Assembly (NCBI GenBank): GCA_012719235.1
Contig: JAAYAR010000066.1
Coordinates: forward strand, 1,400-65,399
DNA: 64,000 bases
Origin: Clostridiales bacterium
Lineage (GTDB): Bacteria; Bacillota; Clostridia; Oscillospirales; Oscillospiraceae
Reading direction: 5' to 3'
Position 1 is the stretch's first letter; each line of letters opens with the position of its first letter. A program made the translations under genes and the position numbers. Shown here one piece after another: positions 4,439 through 46,535 of this stretch. The notes under the pieces were generated by a model that worked only from the letters and a program-made list of their open reading frames with translations, made no database searches and had not been told where the DNA came from.

Positions 4439-5403
4439 CCCAGATCCCGTTTTATCAACTTGGTGATGCTGTAAATGTCATCAAGAGTCGTGAGCTTCGT
4501 AGTCTTTTCTTTGTAGTAACCCGAGTACGGGATTCCTTTCAGGTACCAGGCGTAGTGCTTGCGGGCTTCGAGTACGGCCGTGCGCTCGCCTTTGGCGGCC
4601 GCCGCCTCCTCGAACTGACGGACGGCTGTGTCGCAGCGCTCTTCTATCGTCGGCGCGGGAGGTACATCCTTTCCCAGCAGAGCACATAGACATTCCCTGA
4701 ATACCCACGGATAACCGAAGGAGCCTCTGCCTATCATAAGCATGTCCGCTCCCGTGACACTGAGCGCCCTGAGCGCGGTCGTGCTGTCGTAGATATCCCC
4801 GTTCGCGATCACGGGTATGCTCAGAGATCTCTTGACCTCCGCGATAATATCCCAGTCTGCCGCGGCGGAGTAAAACTGTCTGGCCGTGCGCCCGTGGACG
4901 CAAACGGCAGCGGCGCCGTTATCCTGAGCTGTTTTTGCCAGCTCAAGAACGTTGACGCTCCCCTTATCCCAGCCTTTTCGCAATTTGACCGTGACCGGCA
5001 CCGGTACGGCCCCGACGACGGCTCCGACGATGCGCGCCGCCAGTTCGGGCGTGCGCATGAGCGCGGCCCCGTCCCCGTTGGAAACGATTTTCGGTGTGGG
5101 ACAACCCATATTGATATCGATTATTTCGGCCCCGGTCAAATCGTACGCTTTTTTCGCAGCCTTAGCCATGATTTCGGGGTCATGTCCGAAGATCTGCACG
5201 GCAAAAGGATGATCGTCGCCGCTGCGTTTGAGGAGGTCCAGGGTACGGCTGTCCTGATAGCACAGAGCCTGCGAGCTGACCATTTCGGAATAGGTCAGAC
5301 CGGCGCCCTGCCGGCGGCAGGCCATGCGAAAAGCGATGTCGGAAACTCCCGCCATCGGGGCAAGGGCCAGCAGCGAATCGATTTTTATACTGCCGATGTG
5401 CAT
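4435..5403 (-). CDS. dusB: tRNA-dihydrouridine synthase (DusB-like)
   Basis: LAPMAGVSDIAFR, IDINMGCP and VTVKLRKGWD motifs. Start trimmed to the ATG at 5403, which follows GGAGGAGA. The longer frame reaching 5469 lacks an RBS. Confidence 0.9.
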   Translation of the reverse strand: MHIGSIKIDSLLALAPMAGVSDIAFRMACRRQGAGLTYSEMVSSQALCYQDSRTLDLLKRSGDDHPFAVQIFGHDPEIMAKAAKKAYDLTGAEIIDINMGCPTPKIVSNGDGAALMRTPELAARIVGAVVGAVPVPVTVKLRKGWDKGSVNVLELAKTAQDNGAAAVCVHGRTARQFYSAAADWDIIAEVKRSLSIPVIANGDIYDSTTALRALSVTGADMLMIGRGSFGYPWVFRECLCALLGKDVPPAPTIEERCDTAVRQFEEAAAAKGERTAVLEARKHYAWYLKGIPYSGYYKEKTTKLTTLDDIYSITKLIKRDLG

Positions 5404-5624
5404 GGTCTCCTCCTTGCCGCAAAGCGAAATGCGCCCATCAAGTATATCATAAGAGAATCGGCACTGCAAGGAGGGCTTCCGGGGCGGTCGGACCGCAAAT
5501 CGCGGTTTTAACCCGCCCTTTTGAATAATTTTACATTAATTTTATGCGGAATGCTATCTTTTTTGTACCGAAAGCACCCGCAATCGTCATAAATGATCCT
5601 GCAATGGACCGGAAAAAGACAATA

Positions 5625-42936: not shown

Positions 42937-44313
42937 CTATATTCGCAATATGAGCGTAGCGATACGGAAGTATATCAGCAGCGTAAGGGCGTCAAGCGCG
43001 GTCGTTATGATCGGGCTCGCCATGACCGCGGGGTCGAAACCGACCTTCGCCGCCACCATGGGCAGTACGCAGCCTATGACTTTGGCCACGAGCACTACGA
43101 CCACAAGCGTTATACTGACTACGAGCGCTACGGGCACCGTCACCGAATAGTTTTGCAGGATAAGGCGGTCTACAAGCATTATCTTGCAAAAGCCCGCGAT
43201 CGCGAGGGTCACGCCGCAGAACAAGGAGACGCGGACCTCTTTCCATACGACTCTAAGAAGGTCGCTGAACTGGATCTCGTTCAACGATAGGTTTCGGATC
43301 GCTGTGACCGAGGACTGACTGCCCGAGTTGCCGCCGGTGCCCATGAGCATGGGAACAAACGACATGAGCGCGACCTGCGCGGCGAGCGCGTGCTCATAGT
43401 TTGTTATTATGAGCCCCGTAAACGTGGCGGAGATCATCAGCAGAAGCAGCCAGGGGATGCGGTTGAGCCAGAGCCTGTATACCTCCGTCTTCAGATACGG
43501 TTTCTCGGACGGCGTCATACCGGCCATTTTCTCGATGTCTTCGGTGGCCTCTTCGGTAATGACCTCAAAGGCGTCGTCAAACGTCACTATGCCGACGAGC
43601 CGGTTCTCTTTGTCCACCACCGGCATAGCGTCAAAGTTATACTTTGAGATCATCAGCGCAACTTCCTCTTTGTCCTGGGTCGTTGTAACGCTGATGACGT
43701 TTGACTCCATCTTGTCGCGGACGTACGCGTCCGGGTCGGACAGGATTATGGTGCGTATGGATATGGCGCCGATAAGCCGCTTGCTGCGGTCTGTGACATA
43801 GCAGGTGTTTATTGTCTCTTTATCTATACCGGTGCGGCGTATATGGTCCTCGGCCTCCCGGATGGTCATATCCGGCCTGAGGTCCACGTACTCCGTCGTC
43901 ATGATGCTGCCGGCCGAGTCCTCGGGGTATTTGAGTATTTCGTTGATCAGTTTGCGCGTGTCGGGGTCGGCCTGCTGCAGGATGCGCTTGACAACGTTCG
44001 CGGGCATCTCCTCGACCAGATCAACAGCATCATCAATGTACATTTCGTTGACTACAGCCTTCAGCTCGCTGTCCGAAAATCCCCGTATGAGCAGTTCCTG
44101 AAGATCGGAATCCATCTCAACGAAGGACTCGGCCGCAAGCTCTTTAGGCAGCAGCCTGAACAGCAGGGGCAGTAATTTTTCACCCAACTCGTCGAACACG
44201 TAGGCTATGTCCGAGGGGTTCATCGTTATCAGCACTTCCCGCAGCGCGGAGTATTTCTTCGCGGCGGCCAGAGCCGAGAGCGTGCTTTCAAGTGTGGCTG
44301 TTCTTTCTGTCAT
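42937..44313 (-). CDS. mgtE: Magnesium transporter MgtE
   Basis: An N-domain, tandem CBS domains (YPEDSAGSIMTTEYV..., FDAMPVVDKENRLVGIVTFDD) and five TM helices with GTGGNSGSQS. The ATG at 44313 follows GGAAAGGAGA. Confidence 0.92.
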   Translation of the reverse strand: MTERTATLESTLSALAAAKKYSALREVLITMNPSDIAYVFDELGEKLLPLLFRLLPKELAAESFVEMDSDLQELLIRGFSDSELKAVVNEMYIDDAVDLVEEMPANVVKRILQQADPDTRKLINEILKYPEDSAGSIMTTEYVDLRPDMTIREAEDHIRRTGIDKETINTCYVTDRSKRLIGAISIRTIILSDPDAYVRDKMESNVISVTTTQDKEEVALMISKYNFDAMPVVDKENRLVGIVTFDDAFEVITEEATEDIEKMAGMTPSEKPYLKTEVYRLWLNRIPWLLLLMISATFTGLIITNYEHALAAQVALMSFVPMLMGTGGNSGSQSSVTAIRNLSLNEIQFSDLLRVVWKEVRVSLFCGVTLAIAGFCKIMLVDRLILQNYSVTVPVALVVSITLVVVVLVAKVIGCVLPMVAAKVGFDPAVMASPIITTALDALTLLIYFRIATLILRI

Positions 44314-44329
44314 CGCCTTATCTCCTTTC

Positions 44330-44565
44330 CGGATTCCGATTGCGGGGCCGCCGGAACCCAATTGATTCGCGACGCGGGGCCCGCGCGCGAAAAAGCAGGC
44401 TACAGCACAGGATAATGCCGACAGCCTTATTCTTGACAGGAGCAAGGCACAATATAGGTGAGCGTCAGGCGCTTTCGGCGAACGCCGGCAAACTGCGCCC
44501 GGATCGTCTTCGGCCTATGGGTGTGCCGCTACTACTGCCAGCGTCCATCAACTTTCACCTCATTT
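44330..44565 (-). ncRNA. Candidate M-box (ykoK) Mg2+ riboswitch leader of mgtE
   Basis: The minus strand contains GAGGTGAAAG...ACGCTGGC...CACCCATAGGCCGAAGACGATCCGGGCGCAG...CCTGTGCTGTAGCC. This resembles the M-box core segments GGUGAGG / ACGCUGCUGCCC / GUCCAAAGACGCUAAUGGGUCAACAG / ACAGUGCUAAAGC. The position in front of mgtE is canonical. Compared from memory only. Confidence 0.4.
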
Positions 44566-44608
44566 CAAAATCAGAACAAAACCCACGCGCCGAAACGGCG
44601 CGCGGGTT
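44566..44608 (-). terminator. Strong intrinsic terminator ending the upstream non-coding transcript
   Basis: Minus strand: AACCCGCGCGCCG-ttt-CGGCGCGTGGGTT followed by TTTGTTCTGATTTT. Confidence 0.75.
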
Positions 44609-44825
44609 CTACCCAACACAGCGCACCGTTTGAACTTCAGCATCGCAGGGCAATGAAATCGCGTTAGACGGCGCCTTGTGCTTCGACGTCGCCTGCTCAA
44701 ACCATCTGCCGGTGTCTCCACCGGTTCGCGGCAGCGATCCGTATCCCTTGCGGTAGCCTTGTCTACCGGGATTGTTCAATTGTCCTGCGGGACAAGCGGC
44801 TGCCGGCCGGATGCCCCGTCTTTAC
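44570..44825 (-). ncRNA. Unclassified structured RNA candidate (about 255 nt, bounded by promoter and terminator)
   Basis: There is no RBS-preceded ORF. Nested helices are visible by eye: AGACGGGGC/GCGCCGTCT, CGGCAGC/GCTGCCG, TTGTCC-cgca-GGACAA, ATCCC[GGTAG-acaagg-CTACC]gcaaGGGAT and CCGGTG-GAGA-CACCGG. Confidence 0.4.
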
Positions 44826-44831
44826 TAAACA

Positions 44832-44860
44832 ATTCTAGCATCACACTCAGTATATGTCAA
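44832..44860 (-). promoter_or_regulatory. Near-consensus sigma-70 promoter with extended -10
   Basis: Minus strand: TTGACA (44860-44855), 17 nt, TGcTAGAAT (44840-44832). The -35 overlaps the TGA stop (44857-44859) of the isomerase gene. Confidence 0.6.
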
Positions 44861-45582
44861 GAATACGCCTTTGTGCGCCCGTCGTCCGCCTTCAGGCAGG
44901 GAACAAGCCTTGTGTATTCGTTGCACAGCGGGTGAAGCGGCGGTTCATCCTCTTCGATCCTGGCAAAACGCGGATAGCTCTCCGTGAAATAATTGTCGGT
45001 ACGGTCATCGTTGACGGATGAGACCTCGCCGCATATGAGCGGGCCGCACCCGGTCTTTGCGCCGAACACGTGATACATCCCGGGGACCAGGCGGACGCTC
45101 TGTCCGGGAAGGACGTCAAACGGTTCCCCGGCTGCGACCGTGCGGACAAGGCCGTCGGAGCGCACGCGCACGACTCCGTTCATATTCGGTCCGCCGCCCG
45201 GCAGGCTGTTCCACAGGCGCACGCGCATGACGCCGCCCGCCCTGTTGATTATGTCCTCCGTTTTTACTTTATGGCAGTGGCAGGGGAGGTACTGGCCCTC
45301 ATCCAGGATGATATACTTTTCGGCGTAAGGGGAGCCTATCTCCGGGTGCGCCAGCACGCCGTTGCGGACAGTGAACAGGACCGCACCGCATTCTTCGAAC
45401 CTGCCCGTGCCGTAGTCGGTCACATCCCATCCGAGCATTGCCGAGCGGATCTCGTCGGTCTCGGCGGCATGCCTGTTCCACTCGGCAAGTGACCAATACG
45501 CGAATGCGGGAAGAGTAATATGGTACTGTCTGAGCAGCCCGATCGATTTGACAATCTGATTATTGATCTGTGATCTCTTCAT
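44857..45582 (-). CDS. D-lyxose/D-mannose ketol-isomerase family cupin
   Basis: YIILDEGQYLPCHCHKVKTEDIINRAGG...PGMYHVFGA matches the YdaE-type lyxose isomerase pattern. The ATG at 45582 follows AAGGAG. The longer frame reaching 45834 is rejected. Confidence 0.8.
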   Translation of the reverse strand: MKRSQINNQIVKSIGLLRQYHITLPAFAYWSLAEWNRHAAETDEIRSAMLGWDVTDYGTGRFEECGAVLFTVRNGVLAHPEIGSPYAEKYIILDEGQYLPCHCHKVKTEDIINRAGGVMRVRLWNSLPGGGPNMNGVVRVRSDGLVRTVAAGEPFDVLPGQSVRLVPGMYHVFGAKTGCGPLICGEVSSVNDDRTDNYFTESYPRFARIEEDEPPLHPLCNEYTRLVPCLKADDGRTKAYS

Positions 45583-45824
45583 TATTTGCGCGCTCCTTAA
45601 AGCCTTCGTTAATTTCACGGGATGTGAAAAGCATATGTTCCGGACAGCCGTGAGGACTCTGCCCCTGAAGAGCCGTATAACACGGAGTATTATACGGCGT
45701 CCGGGGGGAAAGGGCAAGTTTTTGCCGCCCGGGCGGTCGTGATCTGTCGAAAGCAGGGATTTCCCGGCGATGTTGATTCTCCCGCGCAGCAATGTTAAAC
45801 TGTTGCGGAACAGGAGGGTTAATA

Positions 45825-46535
45825 TTGAAACCACGAAATCACCGCATGAGGGCGCTGGCCGCGGCTTTTCCGTATACAGTTCCGATATTTGCAGGCTTTT
45901 GGTTTCTCGGACTTACATACGGAATTTATATGAACGTGTCCGGGTTCGGCTTCTGGTATCCGATGCTGATGAGCCTCACGATATTCGCAGGATCGGTCGA
46001 ATTTGTAACAGTAAATATGCTTCTCGGCGCGTTCAACCCCGTTCAGGCGCTGGCGATGACGCTGATGGTCAACGCAAGGCATATATTCTACGGAATATCG
46101 ATGCTCGACAAGTATAACACGGCGGGCCTGAAGAGGATATACATGATATTCGGAATGTGCGACGAGAGCTTTTCGATAAACTACACCGCAAAGATACCGG
46201 AGGATGTCGACAGGGGATGGTTCATGTTTTTCGTCACGCTGCTCAATCACTTCTACTGGTTTTCCGGCTCGACTCTGGGCGGCCTTTTCGGCTCGATAGT
46301 CACCTTCAACACGGAGGGGATCGGCTTCGTGATGACCGCGATGTTTACGGTCATATTTATCGAACAGTGGCTGAAGGATAAAAATCATCTGAGCGCTCTG
46401 TTGGGGCTTGCGCTGTCGCTGCTGTGTCTTTTCGTTTTCGGCCCGGGGAAATTTGTCGTTCCTTCGATGCTCGCCATACTCGGTGTGCTGACCCTCCTGC
46501 GAAAACCGATAGAGAAAGCCGGTGAGCAGGCATGA
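45825..46535 (+). CDS. azlC: AzlC-family branched-chain amino acid exporter subunit
   Basis: Multi-TM protein with [20 protein letters not shown] and ARHIFYG. The TTG at 45825 follows CAGGAGGG. The ATG at 45846 is an alternative start. Confidence 0.85.

Follow-up and report, generated by a model that had tools for sequence, protein, structure and literature searches.

An M-box riboswitch leader upstream of mgtE in a Clostridia genome, followed by a candidate uORF-containing regulatory element

Results

The mgtE locus and its transcription signals

We analysed a 64-kb stretch of DNA from a Clostridiales bacterium (the window), concentrating on the interval 44566–44860, which is read on the minus strand. 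The interval is preceded by a gene for a D-lyxose-isomerase-family protein (44857–45834; Pfam PF07385, E 8e-82) and followed by mgtE, whose product carries MgtE_N, CBS and MgtE domains and whose start lies ∼260 nt past the terminator that closes the interval. The coordinates of the features are collected in Table 1. Elsewhere in the window, a tRNA gene is present at 414–487 on the minus strand (62.6 bits).

Table 1. Features of the mgtE leader in the window and of its counterparts in related loci
Feature	Position	Strand	Basis or remark
−35 box TTGACA	44855–44860	−	overlaps the TGA stop (44859–44857) of the upstream gene
Extended −10 box TGcTAGAAT	44832–44840	−	consensus scan; TAGAAT at 44837–44832
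5′ leader of ∼48 nt ahead of the aptamer	44778–44826	−	folding; predicted hairpin ∼44818–44788, −20 kcal/mol
M-box (Mg2+) riboswitch aptamer, P1–P5	44615–44777	−	Rfam RF00380, RNAalifold
P4 tip CCGGUG-GAGA-CACCGG	44709–44724	−	cmscan alignment
UUUCAYY linker replacing P6	∼44650–44660	−	L066 ∼2250–2262; L045 ∼2278–2290
Antiterminator 5′ strand AACGGUGCGC	44621–44630	−	overlaps P1 3′ strand; pairs with GCGCGCCGUU (44603–44594)
Intrinsic terminator	44567–44614	−	scan and folding; stem 44614–44574 (core 44607–44581), U-rich tract 44580–44567
Diverged copy of the mgtE-leader uORF element	44433–44564	−	model R1, 23.2 bits, E ∼4e-4
Possible second intrinsic terminator between uORF and mgtE	44390–44427	−	inferred from folding
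mgtE	42937–44330	−	RBS GGAAAGGAG 44330–44322; CDS 44313–42937, 458 aa; MgtE_N, CBS and MgtE domains
Typical members of the uORF element	L027: 2317–2454; L056: 2337–2472; L146: 1336–1471		
Loci with variant uORFs	L038, L063, L142, L030, L025; L044, L062; L068, L074, L075; L003–L010		

A first-pass annotation of the sequence had described the interval as a structured, non-coding transcript of about 255 nt with its own promoter and terminator, and these boundaries were recovered. The candidate promoter, of the sigma-70 type, overlaps the stop codon of the isomerase gene; it matches 11 of the 12 consensus positions across a 17-nt spacer and also carries the TG extension. Two promoter-like sites were detected in the 1.3 kb scanned, against 0.5 expected from shuffled sequences. 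Judging from the promoter spacing, transcription probably starts near 44826–44825. At the other end lies a strong intrinsic terminator with a core stem of ∼12–13 bp, including one G-U pair, and a U-rich tract. A transcript running from the predicted start to an end near 44567 would measure ∼255–260 nt. The consensus scan found no further minus-strand promoter-like site between the terminator and mgtE, and therefore mgtE should depend on transcription reading through the terminator.

We found no minus-strand reading frame preceded by a Shine–Dalgarno (SD) sequence in the interval. The sole notable ATG frame, 27 codons from 44643, lacks an SD and passes through the terminator, as the earlier reading had pointed out. 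The predicted fold of the interval (−113 kcal/mol, z = −3.2) is matched by one of 200 shuffled sequences. The hairpin predicted in the 5′ leader is not significantly more stable than in shuffles (z = −1.6).

The leader RNA is an M-box

The Rfam search (cmscan) of the whole window returned a single riboswitch match, and it falls inside the interval. The match is to RF00380, the M-box or ykoK leader, with a score of 81.4 bits (E 4e-16) against a gathering score of 44 bits, and it spans model positions 1–169 without truncation. A permissive search (E ≤ 10) of 44250–44950 recovers the same M-box at the same position. The RNA had been thought to fit no known family; with a significant full-length match it is a known RNA rather than a novel one.

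The cmscan alignment contains the conserved M-box nucleotides GGCU, GGAUA, the GAGA-type L4 loop, CGAA..AAGG in L5 and CUAA, and the aptamer precedes a Mg2+ transport gene, as part of its 5′ leader. P1 is weak in this alignment, with three non-canonical outer pairs. P6, a small hairpin of 3 bp in the consensus, is missing, and 11 consensus positions (∼115–128) are deleted in the window copy. We treat P6 as peripheral rather than defining for membership of the family, since even in its absence the score reaches almost double the threshold.

The complementary words from which a folded RNA had originally been recognised all exist in the sequence, but not all of them fit the fold supported by the family. 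The hairpin CCGGTG-GAGA-CACCGG, read as having a GNRA loop, forms the tip of P4 in the M-box. The pairings AGACGGGGC/GCGCCGTCT, which contains one mismatch, and CGGCAGC/GCTGCCG, both put forward as closing helices, clash with the covarying P5 and P3/P4 and were rejected. For the 5′ strands of P1 and P2, the nested word ATCCC[GGTAG..CTACC]..GGGAT represents a local alternative. Its RNA form, the hairpin GGUAG-N6-CUACC flanked by AUCCC/GGGAU (44752–44772, minus strand), lies within these strands, and the three M-box copies that we compared (the window and two related loci, L066 and L045) all retain GGUAG/CUACC. The Mg2+-free state might adopt this hairpin as an alternative fold, or the hairpin may simply follow from the conserved M-box nucleotides.

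The expression platform

The terminator of the leader competes with an antiterminator. The 5′ strand of the antiterminator overlaps the 3′ strand of P1, as positioned by the Rfam alignment, and it forms a 10-bp helix with a segment within the 5′ arm of the terminator. We folded the nascent RNA up to 44594, the point before the 3′ arm of the terminator is made. Without this arm the RNA folds into the 10-bp antiterminator; when the arm is added, the terminator wins.

The arrangement suggests the following switch. Transcription would start at the sigma-70-type promoter. At high cytoplasmic Mg2+ the aptamer would compact and hold the 3′ strand of P1, the terminator with its U tract would form, and transcription would stop after ∼255 nt with mgtE off. 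At low Mg2+ P1 would not be held, its strand would be free to pair as AACGGUGCGC with the 5′ arm of the terminator, and polymerase would read through into the remaining leader and mgtE, with a consequent rise in Mg2+ uptake. The response to Mg2+ and its direction are taken by analogy from the Bacillus subtilis ykoK (mgtE) leader, which follows the standard M-box logic of OFF at high Mg2+ and read-through at low Mg2+ (PMC12810186).

The same boundaries could belong to a stand-alone sRNA of ∼255 nt acting in trans, a possibility raised in the first-pass annotation. A discrete promoter and a strong terminator do bound the interval, and terminated riboswitch leaders accumulate as short RNAs; beyond this, nothing speaks for such an sRNA. 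A full-length M-box aptamer makes up the body of the RNA, the terminator competes with an antiterminator drawn from the aptamer's own P1 strand, which is a cis-acting design, and mgtE lacks any further promoter-like site of its own. A trans-acting sRNA is thus very improbable. The evidence supports the other proposal made for the interval, a structured, non-coding, cis-acting leader that governs mgtE by termination or read-through. We have little doubt that the interval represents the mgtE mRNA leader, made up of an M-box Mg2+ riboswitch aptamer and a transcription-termination platform.

The leader past the terminator

At ∼260 nt, the distance from the terminator to mgtE is greater than is usual in a simple M-box leader, which argues that the M-box is not the only control of mgtE. 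This is where the M-box had initially been placed, in the stretch 44314–44573 described as an M-box-like mgtE leader. No M-box match is found there or anywhere in 44250–44614, even at E ≤ 10. The search for a second M-box or another known RNA in 44250–44614 returned only noise, all far below threshold (ClpQY_promoter 16 bits, Leu_leader 15 bits, R1162 15 bits).

What follows the terminator is a diverged copy of a uORF-containing element that we modelled from related mgtE loci (model R1, described below). The window copy keeps the SD, the start codon and the first 14 codons: the SD (SD1) is GAGGUG at 44561–44556, and the uORF at 44548–44465 encodes MDAGSSSGTPIGRRRSGRSLPAFAESA. A counterpart of the Pb helix of the family is formed by GGCACA (44527–44522) with UGUGCC (44451–44446), and UCACCU (44461–44456) is complementary to the window's own altered SD1 (AGGUGA). 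An nhmmer search with the window leader matches many related loci, only over the part just past the terminator. Folding points to a possible second intrinsic terminator after the uORF, in which GCUUUUU follows a singly bulged stem of 12 bp (−17 kcal/mol); it is not among the results of the consensus scan. The R1 model also gives a weak match at 5364–5415 on the minus strand (16 bits, E 0.04), which probably reflects similarity of the SD and start codon only.

These observations bear on the idea of a tandem of two riboswitches, in which a new class would precede a downstream M-box. Two regulatory modules do stand in series before mgtE, and to this extent the tandem reading holds. However, the upstream module is itself the M-box, the downstream leader lacks an M-box match, and the downstream module has an RBS and a uORF, unlike a plain ligand aptamer. 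We regard a new riboswitch class at this position as next to impossible, and keep to an M-box followed by a second element of another kind.

M-boxes in related mgtE loci

Relatives of the downstream MgtE protein were collected from 80 genome loci and 80 metagenome loci, 160 in total. Most of the records that carry a name are Oscillospiraceae, Ruminococcaceae or unclassified Clostridia MAGs of rumen and gut origin. No MgtE with more than 70% identity to the window protein was found in either the genome or the metagenome scan, and the window leader downstream of the uORF therefore has no comparative check.

An M-box is present in 2 of the 60 loci scanned with Rfam: L066 (93.5 bits) and L045 (84.1 bits). 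An nhmmer profile searched over all 160 loci recovered no M-box beyond these two, with the proviso that the profile was built from three close copies and may miss divergent M-boxes in the 100 loci that had no Rfam scan. Both loci keep the order seen in the window, with a promoter, the M-box, a hairpin with a U tract and mgtE. The extra ∼48-nt 5′ leader and its hairpin are absent from both.

RNAalifold, applied to the window sequence together with L066 and L045 without the Rfam model, recovers P1–P5. At 12 of the 49 pairs at least one of the three sequences is changed on both sides with the pair kept. A small protein encoded by the minus-strand GTG/TTG frames of 53–56 codons that exist here, or by the 27-codon ATG frame, is hardly conceivable, as no frame has an SD before it, the frames cross conserved RNA helices and the terminator, and base pairs are maintained through the substitutions that separate the three homologues.

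P6 is absent from all three M-boxes of this MgtE clade, and a short UUUCAYY linker is found in its place. The P6-less M-box may be a clade-specific minimal variant.

A uORF element upstream of mgtE

The uORF element is part of the mgtE leader at 75 of the 160 related loci, and every strong match lies directly upstream of mgtE. The typical architecture consists of a strong SD, 7 nt, an ATG GAC start and a short ORF of 24–31 codons. The consensus of the relatives reads AAGGAGGAAACGUC-AUG GAC GnU GGA AGC AGU ACC GGC ACn .. GCA GGC CGA AGU, and continues with a hairpin ending in GCGUUUCCG and then the stop codon. Past the uORF stop follow CUUCGGCCUG-CGUGUCGG-nCUUCC, a small hairpin, and the SD and start of mgtE. 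Codons 4–14 of the uORF make up the 5′ strand of a long helix of three segments (Pa, Pb and Pc), whose 3′ strand sits just past the uORF stop.

The covariance model R1 comprises 33 sequences, 138 positions and 33 pairs. It gives 42 strong matches (75–131 bits) in the genome loci, 9 of them outside the building set, and 33 further strong matches in the metagenome loci. Covariation was assessed in an alignment of 75 sequences with 68 distinct rows, which was fitted to R1 and thus favours the structure. Across the distinct rows, 89.8% of cells pair, compared with 39–48% with slid partners, and 20 of the 33 pairs are changed on both sides. The number of cells changed on both sides is 113, against 33 in shuffles, and none of 500 shuffles reaches 113. 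RNAalifold run on a plain MAFFT alignment finds Pb and Pc independently, with compensatory changes.

The reading frame of the uORF also appears constrained. The first in-frame stop falls inside the short linker before the 3′ strand of Pc in 63 of the 68 distinct sequences, at a median of 11 nt ahead of the strand, compared with 19 of 68 and 4 of 68 for the other two frames. The uORF itself thus looks selected. Two relatives have GTG at the start position. The family consensus peptide is MD[ADG]GSSTG..GRS. The frame across the conserved GCGUUUCC differs between loci, and GRS becomes GRC in loci in which the 3′ strand of Pc carries the compensating change. The amino acid sequence looks, from these patterns, to be largely a by-product of the RNA.

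A typical member of the element has no Rfam family even at E ≤ 10, and the uORF peptides have no NCBIfam or Pfam match. We found no published description of such a bacterial mgtE uORF leader in the literature searched. Neither of the two related M-box loci has a match to the uORF model, and among the 161 loci examined only this window carries both modules in series.

The SD and spacer of the uORF, GGAGGAAACGU, are 93.5% complementary to GCGUUUCC, and SD1 may pair with this conserved segment; covariation between the two is not significant, as the observed count of both-side changes is attained in 76 of 500 shuffles. We also asked by partition-function modelling whether translation of the uORF frees an anti-SD that masks the SD of mgtE (SD2). 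In 38 leaders, a few of them with mis-picked SD2 sites, the unpaired probability of SD2 shifted only from 0.42 to 0.34–0.37. Separately, RNAalifold pairs the start context of the uORF (GUCAUGG) with that of mgtE (CCGAUGGC) in columns 19–25 and 235–241 of alignment A1; in L027, for example, ∼2328–2334 pairs with 2498–2504. Both contexts are almost invariant, hence covariation speaks neither for nor against this pairing.

More distant mgtE loci carry variant uORFs 100–200 nt upstream of mgtE, with peptides of the forms MEFDDS.YRS.., MDGTDS..YRS.., MDSGNNKGSDGYRLS.. and MESGHSTSGTGEGRLS.. (Table 1). These loci retain the SD-N7-AUGGA start, together with a YCGAAGU/CCGAUU core. Their helices are unlike those of the main family, and their R1 scores are only 11–27 bits.

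Discussion

An M-box with a terminator ahead of mgtE is an already known, canonical type of leader. The window adds one more, which any Rfam-based annotation would label; the useful correction is that the M-box lies inside the interval and not downstream of it. The leader shares with that of B. subtilis ykoK the aptamer family, the type of platform, in which an intrinsic terminator competes with an antiterminator using the 3′ strand of P1, and the type of gene regulated. Unlike the B. subtilis leader, it has no P6, as is also the case for the two related copies, and it has an additional ∼48-nt 5′ leader and ∼260 nt more leader before mgtE, with the uORF element and possibly a second terminator. 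The departures from the textbook M-box, namely the missing P6 and the long downstream leader, are modest.

Of the precedents for a small uORF after an M-box, the pe20 leader of Mycobacterium tuberculosis comes closest; there, too, the M-box precedes a small conserved uORF ahead of the main Mg2+-related genes (PMC12810186). In pe20 the aptamer controls the SD of the uORF directly, through a translational platform and Rho (PMC12810186), whereas in the window the aptamer and the uORF have an intrinsic terminator between them. The uORF peptides of the two show no sign of relatedness. Also unlike in M. tuberculosis, the element of the window type occurs in 75 loci, most of them without an M-box.

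The mechanism of the uORF element can be approached through Salmonella, where the leaders of mgtA (a Mg2+-sensing RNA with the mgtL ORF) and mgtCBR (tandem attenuators) likewise combine an RNA sensor with short ORFs ahead of Mg2+ transporter genes, and where translation of the short ORF decides between alternative stem-loops (PMC3641672). To translate the uORF, a ribosome would have to open Pa, Pb and Pc along their 5′ strands, and it would terminate beside the 3′ strand of Pc. Translation of the uORF and the long helix should therefore be mutually exclusive. When Mg2+ is adequate, efficient translation of the uORF could prevent the helix from closing, with shut-off by Rho or by masking of the SD as the result; at low Mg2+, poor translation would let the helix form and allow expression of mgtE. 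Drawn as it is from mgtL/mgtA and mgtCBR (PMC3641672), we hold this mechanism with low to moderate confidence. The Salmonella leaders are unrelated to that of the window in sequence and fold, and the Rfam Mg_sensor family matches neither the window leader (cmscan at E ≤ 10 of 44250–44950) nor a typical member of the uORF element. Unlike mgtL, the window uORF and the family consensus peptide have no run of proline codons. The Salmonella examples also differ from the window in coming from Rho-using Proteobacteria.

The "mgtE motif" riboswitch candidate, reported only in the genus Thioalkalivibrio (PMC11109978), is likewise a candidate structured RNA that precedes mgtE and takes in an SD and a start codon. 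That motif encloses the SD and start codon of mgtE itself and not a separate uORF, and, unlike it, the leader with the uORF element has no Rfam match at all; the two are different RNAs.

In the window, read-through transcripts from the M-box would meet the uORF-containing part of the leader, and this second element probably adds a translation-dependent checkpoint before mgtE. We tentatively propose, rating it at somewhat under an even chance, that the leader is composite: a classical M-box followed by a member of a uORF class of which we found no description, present in at least 75 Oscillospiraceae-type loci and in most of them without an M-box, which is perhaps a translation-coupled, Mg2+-responsive attenuator that replaces the M-box in this clade by an mgtL-like logic, with the window alone, among the loci examined, stacking both sensors.

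The main lead is thus the neighbouring uORF element, which lies outside the coordinates of the interval. In most relatives of the window mgtE no M-box was found, and a conserved uORF embedded in a covarying helix stands in the leader instead. Should translation be the means by which this element senses Mg2+, we would have in it a Gram-positive equivalent of mgtL-type control, and the window would then hold two Mg2+ checkpoints in series.
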